Source of the DNA: Eubacteriales bacterium
GTDB taxonomy: Bacteria > Bacillota > Clostridia > Oscillospirales > CAG-272
Assembly (NCBI GenBank): GCA_045612105.1
Contig: JAZKYL010000113.1
Coordinates: forward strand, 122,315-186,314
Direction: 5' to 3'
Length of the DNA stretch: 64,000 nucleotides
The notes under the pieces were generated by a model that did no database searches, had not been told where the DNA came from, and was given only the letters and a program-made list of their open reading frames with translations. Numbering within the stretch: the first letter of the stretch is position 1; the number at the start of each line of letters is the position of its first letter. This document shows, piece after piece, positions 1-21,042 of this stretch. The translations under genes and the position numbers were made by a program.

Positions 1-52
1 AAAATTTCAAAATATTTTACCGCAATCTGCTGAAATAATAATTGATTCGGAT

Positions 53-613
53 ATGCATTATAAGCAGTATACATGTCGTATGGAAGATCTTTCGAATATG
101 AATACAATATTAGATAAGTTGATAACTTTATTAGGTAACGATGTTGTTGATTCATTTGTTGATAAAAAAGCCATGGAAGAAATGATACATTGTATAGATA
201 ATTATCCCGAAAAGCTTCAAATAGAAAGAATCAACTTTTCTGTTGTTAACAAAGAATATGACGTTACTACTTCGGTCTGTTTTGACAGAAACGGAAAATA
301 TACGTATAAACAAACAGAATTAGGCAATATCAAAAACGTTTTAGGAAATGGTGAAATTGACAAAATAATATGGAAAGATTTTGAAGTATTGTGTGCAACA
401 AACTACACAATTTATAAAAATCAAGAATTCAATCCTCGAAGCAAAAAGTTTTGGCATATAAGAATTCAATATGTAAATGGTAAAAGCTTTGAATATAAAT
501 CATCTTATTTTGATATTGAAGGATACCATATATTTCATGATTGTTTTGGAAAATATATAGACGCACCGCCACAAAATGCAGAAGAAACATTTACCATTGT
601 AGGTGAATGGTAA
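53..613 (+). CDS. hypothetical protein, no recognisable domain
   Basis: Only long ORF in a markedly AT-rich stretch; a hairpin terminator follows; no motif I recognise. Confidence 0.5.
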   Translation: MHYKQYTCRMEDLSNMNTILDKLITLLGNDVVDSFVDKKAMEEMIHCIDNYPEKLQIERINFSVVNKEYDVTTSVCFDRNGKYTYKQTELGNIKNVLGNGEIDKIIWKDFEVLCATNYTIYKNQEFNPRSKKFWHIRIQYVNGKSFEYKSSYFDIEGYHIFHDCFGKYIDAPPQNAEETFTIVGEW

Positions 614-802
614 TATTGAAAAGTAGAAATTCACCACCTTGTATAACTCGCACGATAAAAAAATAATAAAATCTCTTGGAAGCACACAATGTGTAAATCG
701 TAGAATTGTTTTTTCGCCCAACGGGCTTAATTACGACTAATCTCCAAACCACAAGGTTGTTTGTGCTAATGTTCTGATTCCCGAAGTTTAGTTTTACATT
801 AT

Positions 803-832
803 TAGGGCAGACCAAATCGGTCTGCCCTTTTG
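803..832 (+). terminator. intrinsic terminator hairpin
   Basis: AGGGCAGACC-aaatc-GGTCTGCCCT followed by TTT. Confidence 0.6.
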
Positions 833-845
833 GCACCCTCAACGA

Positions 846-906
846 TTTCTTAACTCAAATTAAGAACTTTCTTAAAAATTTTTAAGAAGCCTTAAATCGG
901 TTTAAG
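846..906. promoter_or_regulatory. three adjacent CTTAA/TTAAG-based palindromes (candidate operator cluster)
   Basis: Three back-to-back palindromes: TTCTTAA-n6-TTAAGAA, CTTTCTTAAAAA/TTTTTAAGAAG and CTTAAA-tcgg-TTTAAG. They lie upstream of the 989 membrane gene. Confidence 0.3.
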
Positions 907-988
907 ATTTATTGACTTTGCCCAAATTTTGTTTTAAGATATATTCGATAAGTTTTATGACAAGATTTGACAAGAAGGTGAATGACTT

Positions 989-1882
989 ATGATAATTCAA
1001 ATGTTCAACGGGTGGTACTTTTTCTGGATATGTTTGCTAACTCTCATAACCATAGGGTTATATTTTCTATTGAGAAACAAAAGCAAGGCGGTGCAGAGAG
1101 GTGTTCTTTTTTCATTGCTCGTGATCGGTTTCTTATTACACTTTTTAAAAGTATATATCCCACCGTATTCCGTTGATGAGGCGAGAATGCTGCGTGACGC
1201 GTGGTTTGTCAATATCTGCGCCGCGAATATTGCGCTCTTTCCGTTTTTCTTTTTCTCAAAGAATGAAAAAATTTGGGATTATATGTTCTATATTGGTGTT
1301 ATCAGCGGTTTGATCGCTATCTTTTATCCGCAGGAGCCTATGGCAAAGATTGATCAGCTTGCCGAGCAGCTTGATATAATCAGATTCTACTATCACCATT
1401 GGATGCTCCTGGCGGTTCCGCTACTTTCGGTTCTTTTCAGGCATCACAAGCTTTCCTATAAGAGAGTGTTTGTAGCTCCCACGGGGCTTATGCTGCTGAT
1501 GCTCTTTATAATGCTCAATCAGATCTTCCAATCAGAGCTTGGCTTTATTCCTTTGAGAAACGACAGCGATTTCTACCATATAAATTATAAAAACACGTCA
1601 TATATATGGGGACCGGGTGAAAACGATGCTATCGGTGAGTTCTTGGCAATGTTTTGCCCGAAGATATTCAAGACGGTTCCCGTAGGGGAATATGCGGGTG
1701 CTGTGAAATATTGGCCTTGGTTCTGGATACTTGTTCCCGCGTATATACTTGTTCCTGTTCTTGCTTTTTTGGTAGCTCTTCCTTTTGAAGCCAAGCATTT
1801 TGCGGCAGATTGCAAGGCATTGGCTGAAAAAGTAAAGACACATTTTCATTCAAACAATAACAAATTAGCTCATCATCATTAA
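989..1882 (+). CDS. polytopic integral membrane protein (tentatively YwaF/TIGR02206-like)
   Basis: Multiple hydrophobic helices; AAGGTG about 10 nt upstream of the ATG. General resemblance to the 33811..34551 membrane protein; the family call is tentative. Confidence 0.6.
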   Translation: MIIQMFNGWYFFWICLLTLITIGLYFLLRNKSKAVQRGVLFSLLVIGFLLHFLKVYIPPYSVDEARMLRDAWFVNICAANIALFPFFFFSKNEKIWDYMFYIGVISGLIAIFYPQEPMAKIDQLAEQLDIIRFYYHHWMLLAVPLLSVLFRHHKLSYKRVFVAPTGLMLLMLFIMLNQIFQSELGFIPLRNDSDFYHINYKNTSYIWGPGENDAIGEFLAMFCPKIFKTVPVGEYAGAVKYWPWFWILVPAYILVPVLAFLVALPFEAKHFAADCKALAEKVKTHFHSNNNKLAHHH

Positions 1883-1888
1883 ATATTA

Positions 1889-1917
1889 CAAAAAATCCGC
1901 CTTTTGGCGGATTTTTT
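1889..1917. terminator. bidirectional intrinsic terminator
   Basis: AAAAAATCCGCC-tttt-GGCGGATTTTTT lies between convergent genes. Confidence 0.8.
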
Positions 1918-1930
1918 GTATATTGGTATA

Positions 1931-4900
1931 TTAGAATTTGATTACTTTAACGGAAACGTCTGTGAAATCGGTTTTGATACTCGTTATATTACCATATTGG
2001 GCAACATTAAGCATTCCTGTGCCAATACCCTGAACTTTAATTCCGTCTTTCGTTATCTCAAGCACGTCGCACTCTTCACTGTCAAACCAAGCGGCAACGT
2101 TACCCGAAGCAACAGCCTTTATCATTGTTCCGTAGCGAACGTTAACAGGATATTCGTATTCGCCTACTCGAAGGGTGGCAGTATGAGTGGGAGCAGAAGC
2201 ATCGAACCAGTCGATTGCAAGGAAATAGATATGCTTCGAGCCGTCCTCTTGACCGTATATCGCAAACTGCACTATATCGTCGCCGCGCGCCCAGATTCTT
2301 TCCTCTGAGAAGATCGTCTTGGAGATCTCGGCGATAAAATTCTTCACCACCGCGTAAATTGCAGAATTTCCCGCGTATTCAAGGGTGTTGAGAAGATAAA
2401 CTTTACCGTCACCAAGATTTATCTCGTAAATCAGAGCGTTTCCGTTGTCTGTCTGTTTCAGAACAGTAGCGCCTTCGGGTATATTCTCGTTGACGCGAAC
2501 CGCGTTACCGTCAACTGTATCCTCAACAAAGTTTATCTCAGGTGCAATATATTGGATAAAGGAATGATCGATATAATCGAGATTATAATTCTCAATATCG
2601 GCTCTCAAGGTGGTAGTAGACAACTGCGCAAGACCTATAAAGAGCCTTCCACCGCCCCAAACATAGCCCTCAAGCTTGTCCATATCCTCACTAAGCGCCT
2701 TGTTGTAACCGACAGTGCAGAGAAGTTTGTAGCCATCAAAATCCTTTGCCTCAATAGGAAGAATATCAACGCCGCCCATGGGTGTGCCGCTATAAAATCC
2801 GACGGGCTTATCCTTTGGACAAGGGTGACGGTAGAGCGCGCCGTGTCTGCTTTGAGGATAGAATACGTCAAGCATATCCCATGCGTTTTCGGGGTCACCG
2901 TATTGCATATCGTTACGACCCCAAAGCGATGTCTTTGCGCCGAACATCTTCCAGCCGTCATATCTTCCGTTCAAGATTGCCACGGGTGTATAGAAGCTTC
3001 CGCTTCTGGTGTGGGTCGTTACGTATCTGTTAAAGTCCTTGTGCTCCTTCAAGTGGTCGAGACAAGCAGGGGAGAAACGGTTGTGGTAGGCAAAATACTC
3101 CTCCATTCTCCAAAGTCCCTCCTCGGTGTTTATCTCGTCCACACCCTGCATATAGGTGTTGTAAAGAGCCAAACGGTAACGCTTCGAATGCTCAGCGGCA
3201 TCGTGAGGTGTGGTCGACCACTGGGTCGCCAAATGTCCTCCGATTTTGCCACCGTAAACCCTCGCCGAGCCTCTGAGAGCCGCGCAGGTAACCTCGTTTG
3301 AGGAATACATAAGCTCAGCACCCGTCCAGGAATATCCCGCCTGATAGAAATATTTGAACAATGTTGCAGGGCCCGTGTGTCTCGTTGAACCGTCGCGGCT
3401 GGCGGCGAGGCTATTTACAACGAAATTCGCAAGAGCCTCCATATCGCGCGGTATCGTATGGTCGCGGCAAACTTCAAGCTTTCCGCCTCTTTCATAGTAG
3501 GTATCGTGGGAATATCGCACGTTCATTCTTTCGTTATCATTCATAAAGAATCGCACGAAAAGATCGTTAAACATCTGCTCGTTGAGGTTATCGGAAGCAT
3601 CTTTCCCAACTCTGCTCCAATAAACGTAAGCACCGTCAAGCTCGTGGGTCTGTCTGCCCAGGAAGCCATCCGACTCCATTTCCGCAAAGGTAGGGTTAGC
3701 GTTACAGCCCTGAAGCTCGCGTCCGTCTCTCATGTGAGCGTATTTGATTCCAAGAGACTTGAGGAGATCGGCGGTCTCGCGCCAGAGCTTGCCGTCAGCC
3801 GCCCTTGAGCCGCACCAACGATAGGTGGGACGAACGGTGAGAAGCTTGCCTATGTCGTTTGAAAGATACCAAGCGATATAATTCTCAAAATCTCTCTTGT
3901 TCTGATTGATATATACCATATCGCCCGTGCCCGTGATAACACCGTCGTCACCACGCTCAACGCAACGAGCAATATTGCACTCAACTCTGCCGCATTCGCA
4001 AACAAGAGCAAAGAACAGATCATTCTGTGGCTCGTTGCAGATGAATTTAAGCACGTTAAGTCCTGCTTTTCCGCATTTAAGCTCATCGCAGGCACTTATT
4101 GAATCGGGGGCATCGAGAGTGAAGGCTACACCATCCCTTTCGGTCTTAAGCAGGACGGGGAATTCCTCGCCCACACTCACCACCTCGGGACACCACAAAA
4201 GCATATCCCGTCTGACAGACACGATACCAAGCTCGTGCAAATTATAGGGCGCGACATCTCTGTAATCGCTTGTATGGGTTATTTCAAGAGTATTTTTGCC
4301 CTCTTTCGCCACACCGCGAGGGATAGAAAACTCCCACTCGGAATAGCGGTGGCATCTTTCAAAAATCTCACCGTCATAAATTGTCTCGCCGTTAAGCTTT
4401 ACGGTAAAGCTTGGCCATTCTACCTTTGAGAGGTTAACTCCAAGCCAGTTAAACTCAGGCTTGTCCTGCAAAAAGGGAATAAAATCGTGAAGTAGGCTCA
4501 CATCGTTTTCGGAACAGAAATAAGGCTTTTCAAAGAAAACTCTGCCCGAATAATGCATACCCTCAAGATATACGCAAACGTTGGCAATAGGAGCGGTTAC
4601 CTTTTCGAATGCCGCTTCAAAATCGCTCCAGTCGTAGCTGCCTTCGGGAATATCAATAGTTACCGTCAGGTCGGGCTTCGTGTAAGCCAAACGCTTGTCT
4701 ACACCCTTTGAATATCTTATCTCGACCAAAAGGTGAAGATAACCGTCCTCGTGAATCTTAAGGTCTTCTGCCTTTGCCGAAATGCCCGTGCGCCAGATAG
4801 AGCCGCTTCCGTAGTAGCGAGGCCACCAAAGTATCTTGTGATATGCGATCTTGGGATAATCAAAATTATCCGCACTCATATCAAGTGCAAATCGAGTCTT

Positions 4901-5128
4901 ATTTGCTTCAGCAGAAGAAAGGGAATCGTCGATCCTTCTGTAAAGGTATTGATAGTCGGGCTCGGTCTTCCAGTTATAGAAAAGCGCGGTCTCGCCCGTC
5001 ATAAAAATGCGGTCTGCGGCTTCTGCATCCTCGATCTCAAAATCAAGAGAATAGCTTCTTCCGGGTCGCAGGGAAATATCCTTGTCCTGCTCACAATGGA
5101 GAATTCTTTTGTAGCTTTCAAAATTCAT
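1931..5128 (-). CDS. 1065-aa uncharacterised cytoplasmic protein, putative glycoside-hydrolase-like
   Basis: Uninterrupted ORF 15 nt downstream of the dehydrogenase gene, with no signal peptide. The segment 'YKLLCTVGYNKALSEDMDKLEGYVWGGGRLF' resembles the GATase1-like middle domain of GH42-type enzymes. Family not recognised. Confidence 0.55.
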   Translation of the reverse strand: MNFESYKRILHCEQDKDISLRPGRSYSLDFEIEDAEAADRIFMTGETALFYNWKTEPDYQYLYRRIDDSLSSAEANKTRFALDMSADNFDYPKIAYHKILWWPRYYGSGSIWRTGISAKAEDLKIHEDGYLHLLVEIRYSKGVDKRLAYTKPDLTVTIDIPEGSYDWSDFEAAFEKVTAPIANVCVYLEGMHYSGRVFFEKPYFCSENDVSLLHDFIPFLQDKPEFNWLGVNLSKVEWPSFTVKLNGETIYDGEIFERCHRYSEWEFSIPRGVAKEGKNTLEITHTSDYRDVAPYNLHELGIVSVRRDMLLWCPEVVSVGEEFPVLLKTERDGVAFTLDAPDSISACDELKCGKAGLNVLKFICNEPQNDLFFALVCECGRVECNIARCVERGDDGVITGTGDMVYINQNKRDFENYIAWYLSNDIGKLLTVRPTYRWCGSRAADGKLWRETADLLKSLGIKYAHMRDGRELQGCNANPTFAEMESDGFLGRQTHELDGAYVYWSRVGKDASDNLNEQMFNDLFVRFFMNDNERMNVRYSHDTYYERGGKLEVCRDHTIPRDMEALANFVVNSLAASRDGSTRHTGPATLFKYFYQAGYSWTGAELMYSSNEVTCAALRGSARVYGGKIGGHLATQWSTTPHDAAEHSKRYRLALYNTYMQGVDEINTEEGLWRMEEYFAYHNRFSPACLDHLKEHKDFNRYVTTHTRSGSFYTPVAILNGRYDGWKMFGAKTSLWGRNDMQYGDPENAWDMLDVFYPQSRHGALYRHPCPKDKPVGFYSGTPMGGVDILPIEAKDFDGYKLLCTVGYNKALSEDMDKLEGYVWGGGRLFIGLAQLSTTTLRADIENYNLDYIDHSFIQYIAPEINFVEDTVDGNAVRVNENIPEGATVLKQTDNGNALIYEINLGDGKVYLLNTLEYAGNSAIYAVVKNFIAEISKTIFSEERIWARGDDIVQFAIYGQEDGSKHIYFLAIDWFDASAPTHTATLRVGEYEYPVNVRYGTMIKAVASGNVAAWFDSEECDVLEITKDGIKVQGIGTGMLNVAQYGNITSIKTDFTDVSVKVIKF

Positions 5129-5143
5129 AATAAGCCTCCGGCT

Positions 5144-6100
5144 TTAAAGTTTATTAACTATGCTGTGCGGTTTCTCGCCTTTAAGATAACGAACAACGTT
5201 ATCTCCAACCTCCTCGTGGATGGCGGTAACAGCAACGTCGGTATTCCAGGCAACGTGAGGGGTAAGAACGGCATTATGATAATTTACAATTCTCTCGTCA
5301 ACCGGTGAGTTTTCGTCCTCGAAAACGTCAAGCCCGACACCCGCGATCAGCTTTTCTTCAAGGGCTTCTATAAGCTCTTTTTCGTTTATGATCGCACCTC
5401 TGCTCGTATTTATAAGTATAGCAGTTTTTTTCATTTTTGTAAAGAGATTTTTGCCAAATAAATGGCGAGTGGTTTCGTTCAAAGGCAGGTGGAGCGACAC
5501 AAAATCGGCATTTGAAAGAAGCTCTTCAAGATCAACCTTTTTCGCATTAAATTCCGCGACTGTGTCCTCGGAAACGTAAGGATCGTAAACTAAAGCATTC
5601 ATACAAAGACCGTTGGTCATTTTACAAAGTGCTTTTCCGATATTGCCAAAGCCGACAAAGCCGATAGTTTTGACTGCAAGTCTCAAAAACGGAGGCATAC
5701 CCGGACCCCATAAGCCTTCTTTGACCCTGTCGTGCATTTTTACCGTCATTTTTGCCGTGGCAAATATAAGCGACAGCGCGTGCTCGGCAACGTCCAAAAC
5801 ACCGTAATTCGGAGCGTTGCAAACGAATATTCCGCGCTTTGCGGCAGCCTCAAGGTCAACGTTATCGTAACCTATGCCGTAACGTATTATTAGCTTACAT
5901 TTTTCAAGGGAACTTATAACCCTCTCATTCATTTTTGTTGCGGTAAAGAGAACTACCTCTGCGTCGCGTATAGCCTCGATTACTTCATCCTCGGTTTCGG
6001 CAGGAGATACTATAAACTCAACGTCGTCAAACTGCTTGAACACCTCCGTCTCATAGCTGTAGCTACTTGATTCTTTATTGAAAACAACGATTTTTCTCAT
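5144..6100 (-). CDS. D-isomer-specific 2-hydroxyacid dehydrogenase family (NAD-binding)
   Basis: GFVGFGNIGKA Rossmann motif, GLDVFEDE and TPHVAW (catalytic His) motifs. Confidence 0.85.
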   Translation of the reverse strand: MRKIVVFNKESSSYSYETEVFKQFDDVEFIVSPAETEDEVIEAIRDAEVVLFTATKMNERVISSLEKCKLIIRYGIGYDNVDLEAAAKRGIFVCNAPNYGVLDVAEHALSLIFATAKMTVKMHDRVKEGLWGPGMPPFLRLAVKTIGFVGFGNIGKALCKMTNGLCMNALVYDPYVSEDTVAEFNAKKVDLEELLSNADFVSLHLPLNETTRHLFGKNLFTKMKKTAILINTSRGAIINEKELIEALEEKLIAGVGLDVFEDENSPVDERIVNYHNAVLTPHVAWNTDVAVTAIHEEVGDNVVRYLKGEKPHSIVNKL

Positions 6101-6116
6101 AAAAGTTAACTCCGTA

Positions 6117-6998
6117 TTATTTTAAATATACTCTTTTTGCGTTCTCTCCCATAACTTGAGGCAATTCGGCTTTTGTAAATATTCCGCTTTCCTCTACTCG
6201 GTCGATAAGCTGCTTATAGGTAAATTTGCATAGCACTCCGGGAATATCTGTACCCCAAAGCATTCGCTCTGCACCTATTACTTTTTTTAAGGATCTCAAA
6301 TAATCGGCTTGGGATTCAAGAGATAAATTTGCAAAATCCATTACAAAATTATCTCCCGTAAGGCTTTTGGCAAACTCCAAACGCATTTCATTTTTACCGT
6401 CATTGTTAGGGAAGAAACAATGGGTCATAACGAACAGAACGTTCCTATATCTTTCGACTATTGTTTTAAAACCTTCAAAATCAAAGCTCGGCATACTCAT
6501 AGTTCCCATATCGATAGCGACTGTCAATCCAAGAGCATCCGCTTTTTCAAGAAGATGGCAGAAAGCCTCATCGGTCAGTTTCAGATCACTGTGAAAGCCC
6601 GAAAGCCCCCATTCCGAGGATATCTCAAATTTTAATGCCTTGAATCTGTATCTTTCGATCAGATTGTCAAATATTTTATCGGCATAGAGGGCATAAGGGT
6701 CAATAGCTCCTACCGCAGTCAGCTTTTCGGGATATTTCGCCGCCGACTCTGCCATATAATCGTTATGAAAGCCATAGTTACCTCCTTGAAGAAGCACTGC
6801 GTGGTCAATGCCGTTCTCGTCCATTAACCCGATCAAAGTTTCGGCATGAAACCCTGTATCGCCGTACTCGGCAGGGAAGAATTGCTCAACGTGACCCGTT
6901 GCCCAAACACCTTTTCCTCCGCCTAAGGGACGAAATTCACCCTTTGCTCCGTACCCCTTGAGTATCTCGTAAACATGCGCGTGCGCATCAATTATCAT
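6117..6998 (-). CDS. amidohydrolase_2 (PF04909-type) metal-dependent hydrolase / sugar-lactonase-like
   Basis: N-terminal MIIDAHAHV metal-binding motif. Length and TIM-barrel-type pattern are typical of LigI/fuconolactonase relatives. Confidence 0.75.
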   Translation of the reverse strand: MIIDAHAHVYEILKGYGAKGEFRPLGGGKGVWATGHVEQFFPAEYGDTGFHAETLIGLMDENGIDHAVLLQGGNYGFHNDYMAESAAKYPEKLTAVGAIDPYALYADKIFDNLIERYRFKALKFEISSEWGLSGFHSDLKLTDEAFCHLLEKADALGLTVAIDMGTMSMPSFDFEGFKTIVERYRNVLFVMTHCFFPNNDGKNEMRLEFAKSLTGDNFVMDFANLSLESQADYLRSLKKVIGAERMLWGTDIPGVLCKFTYKQLIDRVEESGIFTKAELPQVMGENAKRVYLK

Positions 6999-7013
6999 AA
7001 TAATACCCCCTCT

Positions 7014-7784
7014 TTAAAGCGAGTCGATTAATGCTTTAACACGTCTTGCTTCTGCCATAAGCATTCCAAGCTCGGTGTTGACCCAGAAAATATTCATTCC
7101 TTCACTGTGCCATTTGGTCATAGCCGCGTCGCCGCCCATAAAGATTCCGGCGCTTTTACCATGGGCGTTACTGACTCGGATAACCTTGCGTATATAATCA
7201 TCGTAGGTAGTATCGGGCTTTTGACAGTCAAATGTGGGATAACCCATTGCTGCTTCAAGATCGTTAGGACCAACGATCACCCCCGCTATGTGCTCGCCGT
7301 ATCTCGTAAGCATATCATCAAGCAGGTCTATTCCCTGAGGGGACTCCATCTGCAAAAAAAGAAGTCTGTTTCTGTTAAATTCGGCTATAGTCTCGCCCTT
7401 TCGGAGACAAGCTCTGCCGCCAACTCCCTTTTTGCCGTATGGAGGCATACGCAGTGAGCGGATAGCTGTTTCAACTTGCTCAAAGGTCTCTGTGCGGGGA
7501 ATAAGCACACCGTCAGCACCCATATCGATACACTTCGAGATACAGTGATATTCGCAATCCTGAACTCTTGCAATAAGAGGAATATCGGCTATTCTACAGG
7601 CCTGTCCCAAATCCCCGAGTATTTCGGGATAAAAAGCACCGTGTTCAAGGTCTGCCAAGATAAAGTCAACTCCGCAATTCTTATATACCTCGGGAAGTCT
7701 CGTATTGTTCCACTCGCAGAGCATAGTTGAATAGATCTTCTCGCCATTTTGCAATTTTTCTTTTAATTTCTCAATACCGCTCAT
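7014..7784 (-). CDS. HpcH/HpaI-family aldolase (2-keto-3-deoxy-sugar-acid aldolase-like)
   Basis: DLEHG, ARVQ, PPYGKKGVG and GPNDL motifs characteristic of class II pyruvate aldolases (YfaU/HpaI). Confidence 0.8.
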   Translation of the reverse strand: MSGIEKLKEKLQNGEKIYSTMLCEWNNTRLPEVYKNCGVDFILADLEHGAFYPEILGDLGQACRIADIPLIARVQDCEYHCISKCIDMGADGVLIPRTETFEQVETAIRSLRMPPYGKKGVGGRACLRKGETIAEFNRNRLLFLQMESPQGIDLLDDMLTRYGEHIAGVIVGPNDLEAAMGYPTFDCQKPDTTYDDYIRKVIRVSNAHGKSAGIFMGGDAAMTKWHSEGMNIFWVNTELGMLMAEARRVKALIDSL

Positions 7785-7950
7785 AATTTTTTGCCTACCT
7801 TTCGGAAATCTATTGATTTTAATCGAAAAATGTGTTAAAGTATCTTATAAACACTACCTAAATTATACATAAACAAAGATAGATTTTTAAGTGAGAATGA
7901 TACGTAAAAATTGAACTATCTTCCGAGAGAATATGTATTTGGAGGAATTT

Positions 7951-8823
7951 ATGTCAAGTGAAAGAGAACTTATACGAGTAAATAGCTTTTATACCGTGAA
8001 TTTTTTTGACCTTTCGCCGTTTTTTCATACTAATTTTCATAATCACGACTGCTGGGAGCTATTCTACGTTGACAGCGGCGAGGTTAATTGCATTACTGAG
8101 AGCGATAGCAGAATACTGAAGGCGGGGGACGTGATATTTCACTGTCCCGGATCTGTACATAATACAGTTTGTAACGGTAAGAGAGCCGCCGCTATATTTA
8201 ACGTCCTTTTTTTCATCGATTCACCGGCGATGGAGTTTCTGAGCGGAAAAAGCCTGAAGGTTCCGGAAAAGCTGTTACCTACTCTAAGGAATTTTATAAA
8301 CGAGTGCAATAAGACCTACTTGGTTTCGGAGCATCCATTGAAATCGAAAAAGAAGGCACCTTTTGGCGGGGAACAGCTTTCACGGATATATCTTGAAGAA
8401 TTTCTTTTACTTATGATAAGAGTGCTTCAAAATGATAATCAAACCGAACACTACGCAGCTGAAAACGATACAGATAACGTTCTTATTGATGATATTTGCG
8501 AATTTTTGTCCGAAAACGTTTATAATACGGTAACTTTGAGGGATCTATGTGAAAGATTTCACTTTGGTAAAAGCTATCTTTCGGAGCAGTTTAAAAAATG
8601 CAAAGGTTCTTCAATAATGAGCTTCTTTCTCGGTCTAAAACTGGCAGAAGCCAAAAGAATGCTTCGAGAAGAAAATCTTACCATTGGGCAAATATCTGAA
8701 AAATTGGGATTTGAGAGTCCCGAGTATTTTTCAAGGTATTTCAAAAAAAGAGTAGGGCATTCGCCGAGAGATTTCAGAAAAATGCTGATAAATAATGCGT
8801 CTTTGAAGAAAAAAGAACTGTAA
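7951..8823 (+). CDS. AraC-family transcriptional regulator (cupin + HTH)
   Basis: N-terminal cupin-like domain; C-terminal AraC HTH (…GFESPEYFSRYFKKRVGHSPRDFR). GGAGG SD precedes the ATG at 7951; the track ORF starts at 7933. Confidence 0.9.
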   Translation: MSSERELIRVNSFYTVNFFDLSPFFHTNFHNHDCWELFYVDSGEVNCITESDSRILKAGDVIFHCPGSVHNTVCNGKRAAAIFNVLFFIDSPAMEFLSGKSLKVPEKLLPTLRNFINECNKTYLVSEHPLKSKKKAPFGGEQLSRIYLEEFLLLMIRVLQNDNQTEHYAAENDTDNVLIDDICEFLSENVYNTVTLRDLCERFHFGKSYLSEQFKKCKGSSIMSFFLGLKLAEAKRMLREENLTIGQISEKLGFESPEYFSRYFKKRVGHSPRDFRKMLINNASLKKKEL

Positions 8824-8997
8824 ATTACGTAAAATTCTCTGATTTTTGAGCAAAAATCGCCAATATTTTATCGATTTTACGGCACATTTTATCAATTTGT
8901 CATTGTATAACAACTTCTTGTTTGATATAATTTAAATATAAAAGTGTGCATTTGCTCATGATTTATTAAGAAATAATTTTTTGGAGGTAAAAATATT

Positions 8998-10308
8998 ATG
9001 GGAAAACAGACTTCGGATTTCAGGTATAACACAGGTGCGACTAAAGTACCGTGGGCGGCGGTCGGCGAAAACTACAACGTTCACGACCTTATGGAGATAA
9101 TTCGCTTTCTTATGCAGGGCGAGGGCAAGGAGTACGAGGATGCACTTGAGGCAGTCTGGACTCAGGTCAAGAAGCTTGATGCGCTTGCAACCCCTCCCGG
9201 AAAGCTTTCTCTTGGAAGCAAGGTAGAAGCTGCCGAGGCTGCTTGTAACGAGTACCTTAAGACCGAATCCTCCACCTTCGTTACCAATGCGACCGCAGGA
9301 TTTGAGATCGCTTATAAGTACGCTAACCTCAAGGCAGGTGACGAGGTCATCGTTCCCGCTATCACCTTCGTGGCTACTATGGCTTATCCTCTTGCTATCG
9401 GCTGTAAGCTTGTATTTGCGGACGTTGATCCCAGAACCATTAATATGGACCCCGCTGACGTTGCGCGTAAGATCACTCCCAAGACCAAGATGATCGTTCC
9501 CGTACATATCGGCGGCTATCCCGTTGACCTCGATCCTATTCTTGAGCTTGCAAAGAAGCACAATATAGTTGTTCTTGAAGACGCGGCTCACGCTTTCGGC
9601 GCAATGTACAAGGGAAGAATGATCGGTACTATCGGCGATTTCGGTGCGTTTTCTATGCACGAGGTCAAGAATATCACCTCCTTCGGCGAGGGCGGTATCC
9701 TCTGTACCTCTATCCCCGGATATACTCCTCATATGAAGAGAGCACGTTTCCTGGGTCTCGACTTTACTTGTCCCATCAAGGATTGGCTTTACAACATCAC
9801 GCCCATCCCCGGAAAGGAAGAGCCCTTTGTTCCCGGAAATTCATCCACAACCGAGATTCAGGGTCTTGGTCTCGCGCTTCAGGTTGCGAGAAACGAGGAG
9901 ATCATAGCAATCCGTCGCAAGGCGGCTACCTATCTTTCCGAAAGATTCTCCGAGTGCGACGCTATCATCCCTCAGCTTCTTGACAGCGATGATATCAAGC
10001 CCACCTACCATATGTATCTGCTTCAGATCGACCCCGCAAAGGCAGGCGGCGACATTCAGACTCTGAAGAAGAAGCTTGACGAAAAGGGCGTTACTCAGAT
10101 CGCGCATTTCGGTCCTCTTTATCGCTTCAAGATTGTTCAGGATATGGGCTACGATTCCGATGAGATTGCAAAGACATGTCCTAACTGCGAGGAAGTATTC
10201 TACAAGAGATTTACTCACTTGCCTCTCTACGGTCTCTCCGATGAACAGCTTGAGTATATGGCTGATGCCGTTCTCGCGTCTGTTGCTGAAATGCAGAGAG
10301 GCGAATAA
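8998..10308 (+). CDS. DegT/DnrJ/EryC1/StrS-family PLP-dependent aminotransferase
   Basis: Family-typical pattern including FSMHEVKNIT (PLP lysine); GGAGG SD upstream. Confidence 0.85.
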   Translation: MGKQTSDFRYNTGATKVPWAAVGENYNVHDLMEIIRFLMQGEGKEYEDALEAVWTQVKKLDALATPPGKLSLGSKVEAAEAACNEYLKTESSTFVTNATAGFEIAYKYANLKAGDEVIVPAITFVATMAYPLAIGCKLVFADVDPRTINMDPADVARKITPKTKMIVPVHIGGYPVDLDPILELAKKHNIVVLEDAAHAFGAMYKGRMIGTIGDFGAFSMHEVKNITSFGEGGILCTSIPGYTPHMKRARFLGLDFTCPIKDWLYNITPIPGKEEPFVPGNSSTTEIQGLGLALQVARNEEIIAIRRKAATYLSERFSECDAIIPQLLDSDDIKPTYHMYLLQIDPAKAGGDIQTLKKKLDEKGVTQIAHFGPLYRFKIVQDMGYDSDEIAKTCPNCEEVFYKRFTHLPLYGLSDEQLEYMADAVLASVAEMQRGE

Positions 10309-10317
10309 GGTGGCGAT

Positions 10318-11358
10318 ATGAGAAAAGTAAAATGGGGTGTTATTGCCTGCGGCGGTATCGCTGACAGAAGAACTCTGCCCGGAATGATGCTTTCAGAGAC
10401 CGCCGAGCTTGTCGCGGTTATGGATGTAAATCCTGATTTTGCTGAAAAGTGTAAAGAAAAGTACGGCGCAAAATACGCTTTCACAAATTACGAAGATCTT
10501 TTGGCACTTGACGAGATTGAGGCTGTATATATCGCGTCACCCGTATTCTGCCACAAGGAGCAGGCATTGGCGGCAGCGAAGGCAAAGAAGCACATTCTGC
10601 TTGAGAAGCCTATGGGCTTGACCGTTGCCGACTCCGAAGAAATAATTGAGACCTGCGAGCGCGAGGGCGTTAAGCTCGGCACAGGCTTTATGATGCGCTT
10701 CCACGCGTATCACGAGGCTATCAAGCAGGTTATTGCAGAGGGCAAGATAGGAAATATCGTATCTATGAGAGCGCAGTTTACCTGCTGGTATCCCGAAATG
10801 GAGAATTGCTGGAGACAGGATAAAACTCTTTCGGGCGGCGGCGCGCTTATGGATATGGGAATCCATTGCATCGACCTTCTTCAGTACCTTTCGGGACTTG
10901 AAGCCGTTGAATGCGTGGGCTTTGCTCAGCATCAGACCTTCAATTACACAGCGGACGATTCAGCAAGCGTACTTATGAAGATGAACAACGGAGCATTGGC
11001 TTACGTTGACGCTAATTTCAATATTCCCGACGCGGCGGCAAAATGTCCTCTTGAATTCTACGGCACAAAGGGAAGTATCATTGCTATCGGAACGCTTTCC
11101 CAGGTTGAGGGCGGCACAGTTGAAATACTTGCGTGCCCCGAGGCTAAGGGATACGATGCTCAACAAGACCGTTCCCTCGTTGAGCCTATCAAACTTGAAG
11201 TTGAGTTTGGTAATATGTATACTAAGGAGATCGATGCGTTCGCAGAGGCGATTATTAATGACACAGAGCCTCCCGTCAGCGGCAAAGGCACCATTTCGGT
11301 ACAAAAGATCATTGAATCGGTTTACGTTTCAAACGGTAATCTTACAAAGCTCAATTAA
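10318..11358 (+). CDS. Gfo/Idh/MocA-family NAD(P)-dependent oxidoreductase
   Basis: N-terminal KWGVIACGGIA Rossmann motif and EKP motif; starts 10 nt after the aminotransferase. Confidence 0.85.
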   Translation: MRKVKWGVIACGGIADRRTLPGMMLSETAELVAVMDVNPDFAEKCKEKYGAKYAFTNYEDLLALDEIEAVYIASPVFCHKEQALAAAKAKKHILLEKPMGLTVADSEEIIETCEREGVKLGTGFMMRFHAYHEAIKQVIAEGKIGNIVSMRAQFTCWYPEMENCWRQDKTLSGGGALMDMGIHCIDLLQYLSGLEAVECVGFAQHQTFNYTADDSASVLMKMNNGALAYVDANFNIPDAAAKCPLEFYGTKGSIIAIGTLSQVEGGTVEILACPEAKGYDAQQDRSLVEPIKLEVEFGNMYTKEIDAFAEAIINDTEPPVSGKGTISVQKIIESVYVSNGNLTKLN

Positions 11359-11365
11359 ATAAATA

Positions 11366-11404
11366 AAAATTTGCCCTTTTCGGATACGGAAGGGCAAATT
11401 TTTA
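11366..11404 (+). terminator. intrinsic terminator
   Basis: AAATTTGCCCTT-n11-AAGGGCAAATTTTT. Confidence 0.8.
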
Positions 11405-11424
11405 TATCTTCAAATGTAAAAATC

Positions 11425-11453
11425 TTGACAAGATAATGATTTGTATTTATAAT
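11425..11453 (+). promoter_or_regulatory. consensus sigma-A promoter (TTGACA-17-TATAAT)
   Basis: Perfect -35 and -10 hexamers with a 17-nt spacer, read directly. Confidence 0.6.
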
Positions 11454-11499
11454 TTAAGTAATGCCAAGCCTTGGTAATAAGTTTCAGTGAGTTGACGAT

Positions 11500-11631
11500 A
11501 TGCTAAAAAACGTTATCAGAGAAAAAGAAAATTCTGCCGTCTATACCTTTGAAGGCGAGATCAATAATAGAACGCGTTGGCGTTGGAAAGATCGATATCA
11601 CCAAGGCATCAAGACATTGGAAGGATCTTAA
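11500..11631 (+). CDS. possible 43-codon orphan ORF (or untranslated RNA)
   Basis: ATG..TAA ORF (MLKNVIREKENSAVYTFEGEINNRTRWRWKDRYHQGIKTLEGS) downstream of the consensus promoter. No convincing SD and no recognisable family. Confidence 0.2.
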   Translation: MLKNVIREKENSAVYTFEGEINNRTRWRWKDRYHQGIKTLEGS

Positions 11632-11777
11632 CTACTGCTCAATCTTTAGATCAAATAAATGAAGATTTTCAAGCGGCAAATCAAAAATTAATCAAATAAA
11701 TTAAGGATTTTAAAATTAATTTATAGTATAATACAAAAAACGATATGAAGCACATGAACTTCAAAAAGGAGCATGCT

Positions 11778-13676
11778 ATGAAGATCTACGCTTATCTATA
11801 CGAAGGATCAAAACGTTCAAAGGGCTCTTTTGGTCGCCCCACAAGTCCTATCTGCAATCTCCGCGAAACGAAAATTAATGGTGTCACGCTGGTCTATGCC
11901 GACGTGATAAGCGAATGGGCACTTCATCCCGAATTTGCCGTCGGAATTGATATTCCCGTCGAGGGCAGATATATGGCGGATTTCAGAAGCAGTCAATTCT
12001 GGTGTCAGCCAAAATTCGGTAACAATCCCATAGATATACCCGACGAAACTCAGCTTTTGATATTTCAAAATGAAAAGGGCGATTTCAAAGTTATTTTGCC
12101 CGTAGTCGGAGACGCGTACCGTTGTGTACTCAAGGGCAAGGATGATCATACGGTAACTGCAAGGCTTTATTCGGGATATGAAAAGCTCTGCACCTGCAAA
12201 TCACTCGCTTTCGTTACGGCTGAAGGAAAAGAACCTCATAAGCTAATTGAAAAATGCGTACTTACAGCACTTGAAGCGTTAAACTCCAATATTCCTCACA
12301 GAAAAGACCGCAAGTATCCCGAAATATTCGAGTATCTCGGCTGGTGCTCCTGGGATGCTATGCAGATAAGAGTGACACACGAGGGCATTCTCGAAAAGTG
12401 CGCCGAATTCAGGGAAAAGAAGATTCCTGTACGCTGGGTCCTGTTTGACGATATGTGGGCCCACGTCCGTGATTTTTACGGCAGAAGCTACAATAGCTTC
12501 GGAGAGATGTGCGCTATGATGCATGCCAGCGCACTATACGATTTTGAAGCCGACCCGATACGCTTTCCAAAAGGACTTGCCGCTTGCATTGAAGATGTGA
12601 AAAAGCAGGGCTTTATTGCGGGCATTTGGTATCCCACAACGGGATATTGGCGCGGAATTGAGAAGAACAGCCCCGCATATGAAAAGCTGATGCCATATCT
12701 TCTTGAGACCGACGACGGCATCTTCGTGCCCGATTTTCTCCGCGATAAATCATATGGGTATTACCGCACGCTCAATGAATTTTTCAAGGAATGCGGTGCA
12801 GACTTTATTAAGATCGACAACCAAAGTATGTATCACCGCTTTTATAACCGATTGACTACCGTTGGCGAAGCGGCTCATTCCTTCCACGATGGAATGGAGC
12901 AGGCAACAGAGGATACCTTTGGCAATTCGCTGATAAACTGTATGGGAATGTCCTCAGAGGATATGTGGAGCAGAAAGATGAGTTCCGTATCCCGTTGCAG
13001 TGACGATTTCCAACCCGAAAACAGGGCTTGGTTCACAAAGCATATCCTTCAGTGCGCATATAATTCGCTTCTGCAGGGTCAGTTCTATTGGTGTGATTGG
13101 GATATGTGGTGGACGGATGACGGTCAGGCGCTGAAAAACAGCGTTGCGCGCGCTATCAGCGGTGGCCCCATCTACGTCAGCGACAAGATCGACAGAAGCC
13201 GTGAAGGTATTCTCGATCCTCTCGCTATGAGTGACGGCAGAATCCTACGTTGCGACGATCCCGCTACTCCCACAGCCGACTGTATCTGCACAGACCCTAC
13301 CTCTTCGGGTAAGCCGATGAAGCTACAGAACGTCTGCAAAGGAAGTGGTGTTATGGCACTGTTTAATCTTGATAGGGATAATAACGCAGTTTCCGGTGAA
13401 ATATCTCCGTCCGATATCATAGGGCTCGAAGGGGAAGAATTCGCAGTATATTCTCATTTTACAAAAGAACTTAAAATATTGAAATACAATGAAAAAATGA
13501 AAATTTCGCTTCAAGATAACGATGCTGTCGCGCTGTATATATTCGCGCCGTATATAGATGGCTTTGCGGAGCTTGGAAGAGTCGACAAATTCATTTCGCC
13601 CGCTACTATTGCAAATACAGAGTCCGACAGCGGAAACTACGCGTACGTACAGAATGGAGTGCTCTGCTACAAATAA
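11778..13676 (+). CDS. GH36 raffinose-synthase/Sip1-like alpha-galactosidase family protein
   Basis: GWCSWDA, KIDNQ, RCSDDFQP, CDWDMWW and ISGGPIYVSDK motifs match the raffinose synthase/Sip1 signature. AAGGAG SD precedes the ATG at 11778. Confidence 0.8.
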   Translation: MKIYAYLYEGSKRSKGSFGRPTSPICNLRETKINGVTLVYADVISEWALHPEFAVGIDIPVEGRYMADFRSSQFWCQPKFGNNPIDIPDETQLLIFQNEKGDFKVILPVVGDAYRCVLKGKDDHTVTARLYSGYEKLCTCKSLAFVTAEGKEPHKLIEKCVLTALEALNSNIPHRKDRKYPEIFEYLGWCSWDAMQIRVTHEGILEKCAEFREKKIPVRWVLFDDMWAHVRDFYGRSYNSFGEMCAMMHASALYDFEADPIRFPKGLAACIEDVKKQGFIAGIWYPTTGYWRGIEKNSPAYEKLMPYLLETDDGIFVPDFLRDKSYGYYRTLNEFFKECGADFIKIDNQSMYHRFYNRLTTVGEAAHSFHDGMEQATEDTFGNSLINCMGMSSEDMWSRKMSSVSRCSDDFQPENRAWFTKHILQCAYNSLLQGQFYWCDWDMWWTDDGQALKNSVARAISGGPIYVSDKIDRSREGILDPLAMSDGRILRCDDPATPTADCICTDPTSSGKPMKLQNVCKGSGVMALFNLDRDNNAVSGEISPSDIIGLEGEEFAVYSHFTKELKILKYNEKMKISLQDNDAVALYIFAPYIDGFAELGRVDKFISPATIANTESDSGNYAYVQNGVLCYK

Positions 13677-13681
13677 GTCAA

Positions 13682-13716
13682 AATAACCGCTTTCTTCTTC
13701 AGAGGCGGTTATTTTA
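13682..13716 (+). terminator. intrinsic terminator
   Basis: ATAACCGC-n15-GCGGTTATTTT. Confidence 0.7.
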
Positions 13717-13740
13717 ATTTTGTTAAATTATAATTATCGG

Positions 13741-13769
13741 TTGAAAATCGGGAAAAAATATGTTATACT
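13741..13769 (+). promoter_or_regulatory. sigma-A promoter with extended -10 (TTGAAA-17-TGtTATACT)
   Basis: Hexamers and spacing read directly; lies upstream of glgB. Confidence 0.55.
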
Positions 13770-13801
13770 GTATTTAATGAATCACTGAAAGGATACCTCT
13801 T

Positions 13802-15790: not shown

Positions 15791-15808
15791 TTAAAAGAAA
15801 GAAAATTT

Positions 15809-16519
15809 ATGAAAATTACCACGATATTATTCGATCTTGACGGAACTCTTCTGCCAATGGACCAGGATACCTTTATAAACGCGTATTTCGGCGGGCTTGT
15901 AAAAAAACTGATGCCTTACGGATACGATAAAGACAGGCTTATCGGCGCGATCTGGTCGGGAACCAAGGCTATGGTCAAGAATAACGGTGAAAAAGTAAAC
16001 GAGGAAGTCTTTTGGGATGTTTTCGCAGGGATTCTTGGAGAAAAGACCCGTAAAGATATCGTATTTTTTGAGGAATTTTACGCCAATGACTTTTGCAAGG
16101 TGCAAGCCTCCTGCGGATACGATAAAAAAGCCGCAGAAACTATCAAGGATATAAAAAATATGGGTTACCGTGTGGCTCTTGCCACAAATCCTCTGTTTCC
16201 GTCCACCGCGACGGAGCAGAGAATTTCTTGGGCAGGACTTTCTCCCAATGACTTTGAGTTATTCACTACATACGAGAATTCTCACTATTGCAAGCCCAAT
16301 CCCGACTACTATCGGGAGGTAATATCAAGACTTGGGGTTGATCCCGAAGAATGTCTTATGGTTGGTAACGACGTTGGTGAGGATATGATTGCCGAAACAC
16401 TTGGTATGAAGGTATTCTTACTGACTGATTGCCTTATAAATAAAGAGAATAAAGACATTTCGGTCTATCCCAACGGAAGCTTTGATGCTCTTATTGAATT
16501 TATCAAATCTTTACAATGA
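15809..16519 (+). CDS. HAD-family hydrolase
   Basis: ILFDLDGTL motif I and GNDVGEDM motif IV. Confidence 0.8.
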   Translation: MKITTILFDLDGTLLPMDQDTFINAYFGGLVKKLMPYGYDKDRLIGAIWSGTKAMVKNNGEKVNEEVFWDVFAGILGEKTRKDIVFFEEFYANDFCKVQASCGYDKKAAETIKDIKNMGYRVALATNPLFPSTATEQRISWAGLSPNDFELFTTYENSHYCKPNPDYYREVISRLGVDPEECLMVGNDVGEDMIAETLGMKVFLLTDCLINKENKDISVYPNGSFDALIEFIKSLQ

Positions 16520-16560
16520 ATTTTGCCACGGTGCGAATTATTTCACACCGTGGCATTTTG
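16520..16560. terminator. bidirectional terminator
   Basis: TGCCACGGTG-n12-CACCGTGGCA flanked by T and A runs, between convergent genes. Confidence 0.75.
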
Positions 16561-16568
16561 ATTTAATA

Positions 16569-18512: not shown

Positions 18513-18589
18513 AAATCCGACCGTTCCTTTACTGTATAATATAACATTATAATATCACAAACCGATAAAAAATACAATAGATTTACAAA

Positions 18590-18624
18590 AAATTTATCCC
18601 CGAGAACTCTCGGGGATAAAAAAT
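18590..18624. terminator. bidirectional terminator
   Basis: TATCCCCGAG-aact-CTCGGGGATA flanked by A and T runs. Confidence 0.8.
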
Positions 18625-20345: not shown

Positions 20346-20371
20346 ACTTAAAATATCCTTTCTGCCGTTTA

Positions 20372-20999: not shown

Positions 21000-21042
21000 T
21001 TTCATTGTAAAGAAAAGATTTTCAATTAACGGAGGTAACGTT

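Follow-up and report, generated by a model that had tools for sequence, protein, structure and literature searches.

A predicted non-phosphorylative sugar catabolic island of gut Clostridia, with an AraC regulator, an integral transaminase and a glycosidase-like protein of an unclassified family

What does a bacterium break down with an aldolase, a lactonase-like hydrolase, two oxidoreductases, an aminotransferase and a 1065-residue protein of no named family, all arranged around one AraC-type regulator? The question is raised by seven genes at positions 1,931 to 11,358 of a 64,000-nucleotide stretch of contig JAZKYL010000113.1 (the window herein), which comes from an uncultured gut Clostridia bacterium. 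An earlier note on this DNA had read them as one unit for the catabolism of an unusual amino- or deoxy-sugar, on the template of the oxidative L-rhamnose and L-fucose pathways. The cluster is real, with all seven open reading frames (ORFs) at the expected coordinates and in the expected Pfam families (Table 1), and its sequence suggests a sugar catabolic island that works without phosphorylation under an AraC regulator, and that includes a transaminase as an integral part and a glycosidase-like protein of an unclassified family.

The leftward operon runs from an HpcH/HpaI aldolase (HpcH) through an Amidohydro_2 enzyme and a D-2-hydroxyacid dehydrogenase (2HADH) to the 1065-residue protein, hereafter the giant protein, with spacers of 15-16 bp. 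On the other strand lie the AraC gene and a pair encoding a DegT-type aminotransferase (DegT) and a Gfo/Idh/MocA oxidoreductase (Gfo), which are 9 bp apart. As a terminator-like hairpin lies after the giant gene and another after Gfo, and a promoter that matches the consensus at 12 of 12 positions (TTGACA-17-TATAAT; 11425-11453) serves the gene after Gfo, the limits of the island match transcription-unit signals. The lack of a recognisable transporter or sugar-acid dehydratase, to which the earlier note had drawn attention, was borne out, as no Pfam transporter family and no dehydratase family of the enolase or IlvD type was found among the seven genes or in the first 30 kb of the window. Enolase-superfamily and IlvD/Edd dehydratases were likewise not found in five related loci described below (L084, L085, L086, L153 and L154), and no Rfam element or riboswitch was found in window positions 1-17000.

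Homologues of the giant protein were located by scanning one genome per species, which gave 80 loci, and exact-protein look-ups added L081, L083, L084 and L085; a neighbourhood census of the 80 loci was made on stop-to-stop ORFs within 10 kb of the giant gene. All seven genes occur in the same order in L001, L002 (giant protein 79% identical), L084 (74%) and L085 (67%), and in part in L135. The flanks of these loci differ, with a GH36-like gene, a GH127 gene, an AraC gene or nothing between Gfo and a GH13 gene, and with a TMEM164-like protein or a BD-FAE esterase after the giant gene. Since the seven genes keep their order amid different flanks, the arrangement is not due to chance. Among the 80 species-level loci, the full set was found in L001 and L002 only. 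In the other 78, where the giant protein is 35-47% identical, DegT or Amidohydro_2 was present in L016 only, 2HADH in two loci where it is not adjacent to the giant gene (L065 and L078), and the HpcH aldolase in none. The full seven-gene arrangement is therefore real and stable, and is confined to a narrow clade in which the giant protein is at least 67% identical. The proposal that the genes form one unit stands within this clade, where order is kept as flanks change, and fails as a broad association, since the six families occur as a set in none of the 78 distant loci. Gfo and AraC genes near distant giant genes (8 and 22 of the 80 loci) were considered as a sign of association and rejected, as these counts approximate what abundant families would give among the roughly 1600 neighbouring genes.

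How the island came together is indicated by two loci with giant proteins of intermediate identity. In L081 (63%), an AraC gene (55% identical) is divergent from the giant gene and a Gfo unlike that of the window; in L083 (59%), the giant gene is present without any other island gene. A segment of L083 (4633-13192) is syntenic with the window (16569-20438) across an AMP-binding protein, a leucine-rich-repeat protein and NadE, with the giant gene directly after. In the window, an 11.4-kb block of nine genes, encoding a haloacid dehalogenase-type (HAD) protein, GH13, GH36-like, Gfo, DegT, AraC, HpcH, Amidohydro_2 and 2HADH, lies between NadE (16569-18512) and the giant gene; the block has been gained or lost cleanly as one piece, and the giant gene was thus in place before the other genes, or without them. 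As the six families do not co-occur broadly and the giant gene stands alone in L083, the island is a recent composite of three modules (the giant gene, AraC with the HpcH–Amidohydro_2–2HADH trio, and the DegT–Gfo pair) and not an ancient six-family unit. The giant gene usually stands alone among its loci. L016 (44%) combines GH2-like, giant, glutamate dehydrogenase, AraC, DegT (33%), Amidohydro_2 and ATP-binding cassette (ABC) transporter genes. Glutamate dehydrogenase lies one to two genes downstream of the giant gene in L012 (4701), L016 (13416-14684) and L018 (11333), which are differently labelled metagenome-assembled genomes (MAGs) of Clostridia; in two of them, genes for a class I aminotransferase and a GH2-like protein also lie upstream.

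AraC and the trio form the conserved core of the island. HpcH is a member of the class II 2-oxo-acid aldolase family (PF03328, 57 bits) that carries the catalytic Arg and metal-binding Glu/Asp of YfaU-type enzymes (R73, E147 and D175). It matches YfaU (2vws) at 2.7e-22 in a PDB search, and its match to the 2-keto-3-deoxyrhamnonate (KDR) aldolase equivalog (82 bits, cut-off 441) is at family level. 2HADH has the GxGxxG motif and the Arg/Glu/His triad, and its nearest relatives are short phosphoglycerate dehydrogenase-type and glyoxylate/hydroxypyruvate reductases. For the Amidohydro_2 enzyme, a single-sequence PDB search gave no match, and a profile search reached 4i6k, 3irs, 2ffi, the L-fucono-1,5-lactonase 4dlf and LigI. 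Its structural model (predicted local distance difference test score, pLDDT, 95) fits COG3618 lactonases best (template modelling, TM, scores 0.68-0.73 at 14-18% identity), led by 4dlf (TM 0.71/0.73) and then 4i6k, 2ffi, LigI and the Atu3138 lactone isomerase (range 0.63-0.73), with lower scores to decarboxylases (0.55-0.60). D4, H6, H8, H193 and D251 are invariant, and the score against the FuconLaconase equivalog is 15.7 bits (cut-off 400).

The trio also occurs without the giant gene. L153 holds an orthologous core (HpcH 71%, Amidohydro_2 62%, 2HADH 64% and AraC 46.5% identical) in the same divergent layout, and on its AraC side are a flavin adenine dinucleotide (FAD) protein, a different Gfo, a class III aminotransferase and a rhamnulokinase-like FGGY kinase (401 bits, cut-off 528). 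L086 encodes Amidohydro_2 (57%), Ldh_2, a class I aminotransferase, HpcH (38%), 2HADH (28%) and a second Amidohydro_2 enzyme behind a GntR regulator and an ABC system, the binding protein of which resembles NgcE of the N-acetylglucosamine (GlcNAc)/chitobiose type (3e-62). Relatives of the trio are thus found with an aminotransferase and an NAD(P) oxidoreductase in three places (the window, L153 and L086), and as the enzymes are non-homologous each time, transamination looks integral. The LacI-regulated L154 (4379-14628) encodes Ldh_2, HpcH, an aldo-keto reductase, a metallo-beta-lactamase-fold protein, GH36, Amidohydro_2 and an ABC system, with GH28 and GH78 adjoining; it is another sugar-acid-like set without a recognisable dehydratase.

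The DegT–Gfo pair is slow-evolving and widespread, with its own wider history. DegT belongs to the DegT/DnrJ/EryC1/StrS family of pyridoxal phosphate aminotransferases and has 436 residues, including an N-terminal extension of about 65. As it keeps the Schiff-base lysine K224 (motif SMHEVK), it would be a transaminase and not a ColD/E1-type dehydratase; its candidacy for the missing dehydratase was ruled out on this ground. Its PDB matches include ArnB (6.6e-42), 7b0d (1e-39), 3-amino-5-hydroxybenzoate (AHBA) synthase (1b9h, 3e-36), KabA (7kz3, 1.8e-21), NtdA (4k2b, 7.7e-20) and 2c7t. No nucleotidyltransferase or 4,6-dehydratase was found near DegT, and the context suggests a free sugar or a glycoside as the substrate. 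Gfo keeps the EKP and DxxxH motifs of an NAD(P) oxidoreductase and is about equidistant from C1-, C2-, C3- and inositol-specific enzymes. DegT has 3429 relatives at E <= 1e-30, and more than 120 distinct 90%-clusters lie at 86-94% identity. Between the window and L084 (4815-6125), DegT is 99% identical in protein and about 90% in nucleotide sequence, a sign that purifying selection on this enzyme is very strong; for the same two loci, the giant protein, Amidohydro_2 and 2HADH are 74-80% identical, the giant protein at 74%. A recombined cassette in L084 was considered for these mosaic identities and rejected, as the nucleotide profile has no sharp breakpoints and divergence is uneven (64-96%); our reading is that selective constraint differs between the genes.

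Contexts of the pair in other genomes were gathered by exact-protein look-up and a metagenome scan. DegT orthologues at least 75% identical have an orthologous Gfo (55-76%) downstream of them. Their partners are a DUF1080/3-keto-disaccharide-hydrolase gene (16 distinct contexts), a PIG-L/BshB1-like deacetylase (8), a protein distantly related to NagB/Pgl (1.5e-11; 7), a PfkB kinase (4) and, between DegT and Gfo in L092 and L124, a creatininase-family protein that matches the 3-dehydro-scyllo-inosose hydrolase IolN (5.5e-12). Two heparinase II/III-like lyases, another Gfo, a 2HADH and a Na:alanine symporter lie near the pair in L100 and L129, and a major facilitator superfamily (MFS) transporter and an HpcH aldolase in L093. 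DUF1080 is an experimentally shown 3-keto-glycoside hydrolase family that works with Gfo-type dehydrogenases in Bacteroides (PMC8121099). No homologue of the pair's usual partners, DUF1080 included, was found anywhere in the 64-kb window. Of the two sugar classes that the earlier note had joined, the amino-sugar half gains support, as DegT–Gfo orthologues sit with PIG-L, NagB/Pgl-like, DUF1080, PfkB and heparinase II/III-like proteins and relatives of the trio sit with non-homologous aminotransferases. The rhamnose/fucose template was not established: it is weakly indicated by the rhamnulokinase-like kinase in L153, GH78 in L154 and a GH78 fusion described below, and no NCBIfam equivalog cut-off was reached.

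The giant protein had been proposed to release the sugar, and its predicted fold agrees with this. A word index returned 260 homologues, and an exhaustive profile search placed at least 285 clusters at 50% identity in the family at E <= 1e-30 and 922 at E <= 1e-3. Nearly all members are 1030-1130 residues long and belong to Clostridia MAGs from the guts of animals. With 37 sequences as input, AlphaFold gave a model (pLDDT 90; predicted TM score, pTM, 0.89), which was compared with the PDB using Foldseek and matched glycoside hydrolases (GHs) at E ~1e-14 with probability 1.0 over about 760-800 aligned columns at 10-13% identity. These matches comprise a GH164 beta-mannosidase; GH42 beta-galactosidases together with an alpha-L-arabinopyranosidase; the GH35 exo-beta-glucosaminidase GlmA (5gsm); and a GH35 beta-1,2-glucosyltransferase, the aligned entries including 6t5o, 5xb7, 5gsm and 7vkw. 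In the model, an extra all-beta N-terminal region (residues ~1-395) is followed by a (beta/alpha)8 barrel (~398-730), a GH42M/GlmA-like alpha/beta domain (~780-960) and a C-terminal beta-sandwich, so that the overall architecture follows the clan GH-A pattern of GH42, GH164 and GH35 (barrel, GH42M-type domain and beta-sandwich). The invariant residues R433, H465, H495-E496, H632, E669/E670 (motif EINTEEG) and W726 sit after successive barrel strands in an order typical of clan GH-A, with E496 after strand 489-495 and E669/E670 after strand 665-668; we infer that E496 is the putative acid/base and E669 or E670 the putative nucleophile. Searches of Pfam and NCBIfam gave no match to the catalytic-domain hidden Markov model of any defined GH family. 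Distant members of the family have weak GH42M/GLMA_2nd Pfam matches alone, PF08532 is annotated on many homologues, and in a profile-versus-PDB search only the trimerisation region (the GH42M/GlmA second domain) matched (E 0.018). No signal peptide was found, and from the model we conclude that the giant protein is probably a cytoplasmic glycosidase-like enzyme of a family that lacks a catalytic-domain model.

One natural fusion (P0421, 1713 residues) joins a GH78-like alpha-L-rhamnosidase six-hairpin domain (349-593) to a giant-family protein (717-1443), which by Rosetta-stone reasoning hints that the family may act on rhamnose-containing glycans. A 1031-residue protein at the edge of L154 was considered as a relative of the giant protein and rejected, as the two are not homologous.

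As AraC has an N-terminal cupin sensor and a C-terminal double helix-turn-helix (HTH) domain, and a direct-repeat operator is predicted to abut the DegT -35 element, the regulator has the features of an AraC/XylS activator. Its start is probably the ATG at 7951, behind GGAGG, rather than that at 7933. The two 13-nt repeats end 5 nt before the DegT -35, and a pair with the same 21-bp spacing lies upstream of DegT in L001, L002, L084, L085 and L135; the pair was not found in other DegT contexts. We regard it as a candidate AraC operator in the classic layout. At the leftward promoter the -10 and flanking blocks are conserved, and no clear copy of the 13-nt repeat was found there.

We consider there to be about an even chance that the island is an AraC-controlled cytoplasmic unit, built from the three modules, for the catabolism of an amino-sugar-containing compound. 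The giant protein, as an exo-glycosidase that resembles clan GH-A and belongs to an unclassified family, would release the sugar from a glycoside taken up by the cell. DegT and Gfo, driven by an AraC-type promoter with the two 13-nt repeats, would interconvert amine, ketone and alcohol (or lactone) on that sugar, its nitrogen leaving by transamination. The trio would supply a non-phosphorylative lower pathway consisting of a COG3618-like lactone hydrolase, a class II 2-oxo-acid aldolase and a 2-oxo-acid reductase. In the order of steps that we prefer, Gfo would oxidise a 2-amino-aldose at C1, the Amidohydro_2 enzyme would open the lactone, and DegT would turn the 2-amino-aldonate into a 2-oxo-aldonate. 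HpcH could then split this into hydroxypyruvate and an aldehyde, with 2HADH reducing the hydroxypyruvate to glycerate; alternatively, 2HADH may reduce the 2-oxo-aldonate directly. Hydroxypyruvate is known to serve HpcH-family aldolases as a nucleophile in vitro, and the 2HADH family includes 2-ketogluconate reductases. Since transamination would make the 2-oxo group, which is ordinarily the product of a dehydratase, such a route would require no sugar-acid dehydratase. In DegT–Gfo operons elsewhere, the NagB/Pgl-like protein may be the lactonase and PfkB a 2-oxo-aldonate kinase, giving a phosphorylative version of the route. Gene content, folds, catalytic residues, conservation and recurring partnerships were established here, and it is from context that we infer the substrate, regiochemistry, order of steps and direction of flux.

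Several observations weigh against this reading. Every NCBIfam match of the island proteins is far below its cut-off, and none points to a specific substrate. The best matches of Gfo span enzymes acting at C1 (xylose 1-dehydrogenase), C2 (1,5-anhydrofructose reductase) and C3 (DgpA and levoglucosan dehydrogenase) and inositol 2-dehydrogenase. In most other genomes DegT–Gfo occurs without a lactonase or aldolase, which suggests that the pair performs a self-contained amine-ketone-alcohol conversion, in which case no enzyme would remain for C1 oxidation in the lower pathway. Ring ketones, rather than acyclic 2-oxo acids, are the normal substrates of DegT enzymes. Each module has a history of its own, as in L083, where the giant gene directly follows NadE, and 75 of the 78 distant giant loci lack DegT, Amidohydro_2, HpcH and 2HADH altogether. 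L154 places Amidohydro_2 and HpcH in a pectin/rhamnose-like setting without an aminotransferase, the two operons of the island have separate promoters with a clear tandem repeat at that of DegT alone, and neither the island nor the first 30 kb of the window encodes a transporter that would show what enters the cell.

Other explanations were weighed. That there is no single pathway, and that DegT–Gfo, the trio and the giant protein are functionally independent modules that became neighbours in one lineage, is rather unlikely in our estimate. It would account for the many close relatives of DegT, which mostly belong to DUF1080/PIG-L operons, for the mostly solitary giant gene and the trio without it in L153, for L083, where the block appears as an indel beside a resident giant gene, for the separate promoters, and for the sharply different rates of DegT and the giant protein relative to L084. 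However, the juxtaposition persists in at least five loci despite changing flanks, the 15-16 bp spacers couple the giant gene to the trio, and combinations at family level recur independently: giant, DegT and Amidohydro_2 in L016, DegT–Gfo and HpcH in L093, Gfo and 2HADH with DegT–Gfo in L100, and the trio with an aminotransferase in L086 and L153. We also think it unlikely that the island is a non-phosphorylative oxidative pathway for a 6-deoxy-sugar of the L-rhamnose or L-fucose type, in which Gfo would act as sugar 1-dehydrogenase, Amidohydro_2 as lactonase and HpcH as the aldolase for KDR or 2-keto-3-deoxyfuconate (KDF), DegT would handle an amino-deoxy variant, and a dehydratase gene elsewhere, or an enzyme that we did not recognise, would provide the missing step. 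The matches of HpcH to YfaU and the KDR aldolase model, the nearness of the Amidohydro_2 fold to 4dlf, and the rhamnulokinase-like kinase beside the orthologous trio in L153 are consistent with such a pathway, as are Amidohydro_2 and HpcH with GH78 and GH28 in L154, the P0421 fusion and a GH78-like gene 5.7 kb from the giant gene in L084. Yet no enolase- or IlvD-type dehydratase was found in any of the six orthologous loci or in L086, L153 and L154, the strongly conserved aminotransferase and 2HADH are left without a role, there is no lactaldehyde dehydrogenase or reductase, and the equivalog scores all lie 5- to 25-fold under their cut-offs.

Two further possibilities concern DegT–Gfo in particular. 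Catabolism of an aminocyclitol or of glucosamine (GlcN)-inositol, with DegT as a scyllo-inosamine:2-oxoglutarate (or glutamine:scyllo-inosose-type) transaminase, Gfo as an inositol dehydrogenase and the lower genes processing ring-opened keto-acids, seems quite improbable. IolG is the best NCBIfam match of Gfo (2e-44), but at 152 bits against a cut-off of 355, and although DegT matches glutamine-scyllo-inositol and 2-deoxy-scyllo-inosose aminotransferases (7b0d and 2c7t), ArnB and perosamine synthases score equally. The IolN-matching protein between DegT and Gfo in L092 and L124, and PIG-L partners that resemble MshB/BshB-type GlcNAc-inositol or GlcNAc-malate deacetylases, agree with a cyclitol; no other iol genes were found, and the DUF1080, NagB-like and heparinase-like partners point to hexosamines instead. 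Very improbable, in our view, is that DegT–Gfo is biosynthetic and makes a kanosamine-like amino sugar, as NtdA/NtdC and RifK/RifL do. A dehydrogenase with a DegT enzyme is classic biosynthetic logic, AHBA synthase and NtdA are among the DegT matches, and in L092 the pair lies amid housekeeping genes with no regulator. However, NtdA is matched weakly, and next to the pair there is neither a phosphatase of the NtdB type nor a glycosyltransferase or nucleotidyltransferase. Its regulators are of the cupin-AraC sensor type, it is accompanied by hydrolases, lyases, a kinase and uptake systems, and the operon that diverges from it is of a catabolic kind. The NtdA/NtdC idea, prompted by the 436-residue DegT with its N-terminal extension, was rejected on its weak NtdA/KabA PDB matches and the lack of a phosphatase in the operon. 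Close homology of the enzymes to already assigned pathways, on which the earlier reading could have foundered, was not seen: nothing maps closely, with NCBIfam scores far below the cut-offs.

If the amino-sugar reading is taken to its full extent, the modules of gut Clostridia would constitute an undescribed, dehydratase-free oxidative amino-sugar route, in which the 2-oxo group is installed by a transaminase, in place of a dehydratase or of a deaminase that works on a sugar phosphate, and a class II aldolase releases hydroxypyruvate, fed by a new family of cytoplasmic glycoside hydrolases of about 1050 residues. We put this forward as a doubtful but well-delimited and testable hypothesis, in which its value lies for now. 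If true, gut and rumen Clostridia would have a second route for amino sugars from mucins, glycosaminoglycans, chitin-like or microbial glycans, one that bypasses the classical NagA/NagB phosphate pathway and releases nitrogen as glutamate. A literature search on the enzyme combination, on the PDB codes 8GYH and 7B0D and on a glucosaminate transaminase route returned nothing relevant. Targets for enzyme discovery are the giant family, with its many clusters and predicted clan GH-A fold and without a family model; DegT–Gfo, very slow-evolving, with more than 3400 relatives and usually beside a 3-keto-glycoside hydrolase; and the divergent Amidohydro_2 subgroup, for which a single-sequence search gave no solved relative.

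Table 1. Genes and predicted signals of the island, in window coordinates.
Feature	Position	Strand	Details
Terminator-like hairpin, end of leftward operon	1887-1920	-	15-bp stem, T-run either side
Giant gene	1931-5128	-	1065 aa; no Pfam or NCBIfam match
D-2-hydroxyacid dehydrogenase (2HADH)	5144-6100	-	2-Hacid_dh_C 3e-54; 2-Hacid_dh 4e-32
Amidohydro_2 enzyme	6117-6998	-	Amidohydro_2 2.7e-24
HpcH/HpaI aldolase	7014-7784	-	HpcH_HpaI 1.8e-15
Promoter-like site, leftward operon	7862-7890	-	-10 TGTATAAT in 4/5 orthologous loci, AGTATAAT in L001
AraC-family regulator	7933-8823	+	Cupin_2 and HTH_18/HTH_AraC
Tandem 13-nt direct repeat	8865-8877, 8886-8898	+	ATTTTATCGATTT, ATTTTATCAATTT; 21 bp start-to-start
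Promoter-like site, DegT–Gfo	8903-8931	+	TTGTAT, 17-nt spacer, extended -10 TGATATAAT
DegT aminotransferase	8998-10308	+	DegT_DnrJ_EryC1 (PF01041) 3.9e-71, 240.6 bits
Gfo oxidoreductase	10318-11358	+	GFO_IDH_MocA and both C-terminal domains
Terminator-like hairpin, end of rightward operon	11375-11394	+	3' of Gfo

Around the island, G+C content is 30% in window positions 1-1000 and 40-51% across the island itself. An ORF of 186 residues without a family lies at 53-613, and a TMEM164/TP0381-like integral membrane protein (297 residues, 989-1882) is convergent with the giant gene and has a common bidirectional terminator with it. It is kept beside the giant gene in L084 (95% identical), with a BD-FAE esterase in its place in L085; no other membrane protein lies near the island, and this one is not recognisable as a transporter. 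What lies between Gfo and the GH13/CBM48 gene (11359-13800 in the window) varies: a GH36-like gene of the raffinose-synthase family in the window and L084, GH127 in L085, an extra AraC gene in L002 and nothing in L001. A GH109-like glycosidase that depends on NAD (GFO_IDH_MocA and Glyco_hydro_109_C, 420 residues) and, after it, a NagD-type HAD phosphatase lie some 10 kb from the island (20971-23033) and may be another amino-sugar-related pair. A 1663-residue protein with six BspA-type leucine-rich-repeat regions (PF13306, 574 bits; 25873-30864) is likely a surface or adhesion protein.

Comparison with described systems places the island among several of them. The oxidative L-rhamnose and L-fucose pathways consist of a sugar 1-dehydrogenase, a COG3618 or SMP30 lactonase, an enolase/IlvD dehydratase and a YfaU/HpcH-type aldolase. 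The island has in common with them an HpcH class II aldolase with its Arg and metal ligands, a COG3618-like fold, an NAD(P) sugar oxidoreductase and the lack of a kinase; unlike them, it has no dehydratase in the orthologous loci and no lactaldehyde-handling enzyme, and adds an aminotransferase and 2HADH. The 3-keto-glycoside pathway of Bacteroides thetaiotaomicron (BT2156-BT2160) pairs Gfo-type glycoside 3-dehydrogenases with a DUF1080 hydrolase (PMC8121099), and as there, a Gfo/Idh/MocA oxidoreductase would act on the sugar ring and orthologues of the DegT–Gfo pair are usually directly beside DUF1080. In the window, by contrast, no DUF1080 or xylose-isomerase-like partner lies beside Gfo, the BT_2159_fam score is 52 bits against a cut-off of 650, an aminotransferase is present where the Bacteroides system has none, and the island proteins appear cytoplasmic, with no export signals.

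The giant protein resembles GH42, GH164 and GH35 (GlmA) enzymes in its predicted architecture and in the invariant Glu residues, which follow the barrel strands where an acid/base and a nucleophile are expected, whereas its 10-13% identity, its extra N-terminus of about 395 all-beta residues and a putative acid/base motif of H-E and not N-E set it apart. DegT–Gfo is built from the same adjacent families as the NtdC/NtdA, RifL/RifK and WbpB/WbpE pairs, with the same alcohol-ketone-amine chemistry, but in a catabolic context (AraC-cupin regulators, hydrolases, a kinase and lyases) without a phosphatase or nucleotide-sugar machinery; unlike the NtdABC and KabABC operons, that of DegT–Gfo holds no phosphatase, and the HAD gene (15809) lies behind two other promoters. 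In 2-ketogluconate utilisation, KguK is a PfkB kinase and KguD a reductase of the 2-hydroxyacid dehydrogenase family, and D-glucosaminate catabolism uses the ammonia-lyase DgaE and the aldolase DgaF. The proposed route would differ from both in using transamination and not pyridoxal phosphate (PLP)-dependent elimination, and in having no phosphotransferase uptake and no 2-keto-3-deoxy-6-phosphogluconate (KDPG)-type aldolase, and it would resemble them in its proposed 2-oxo-aldonate and 2-amino-aldonate intermediates, its 2HADH-family reductase and the PfkB kinase that accompanies DegT–Gfo elsewhere.

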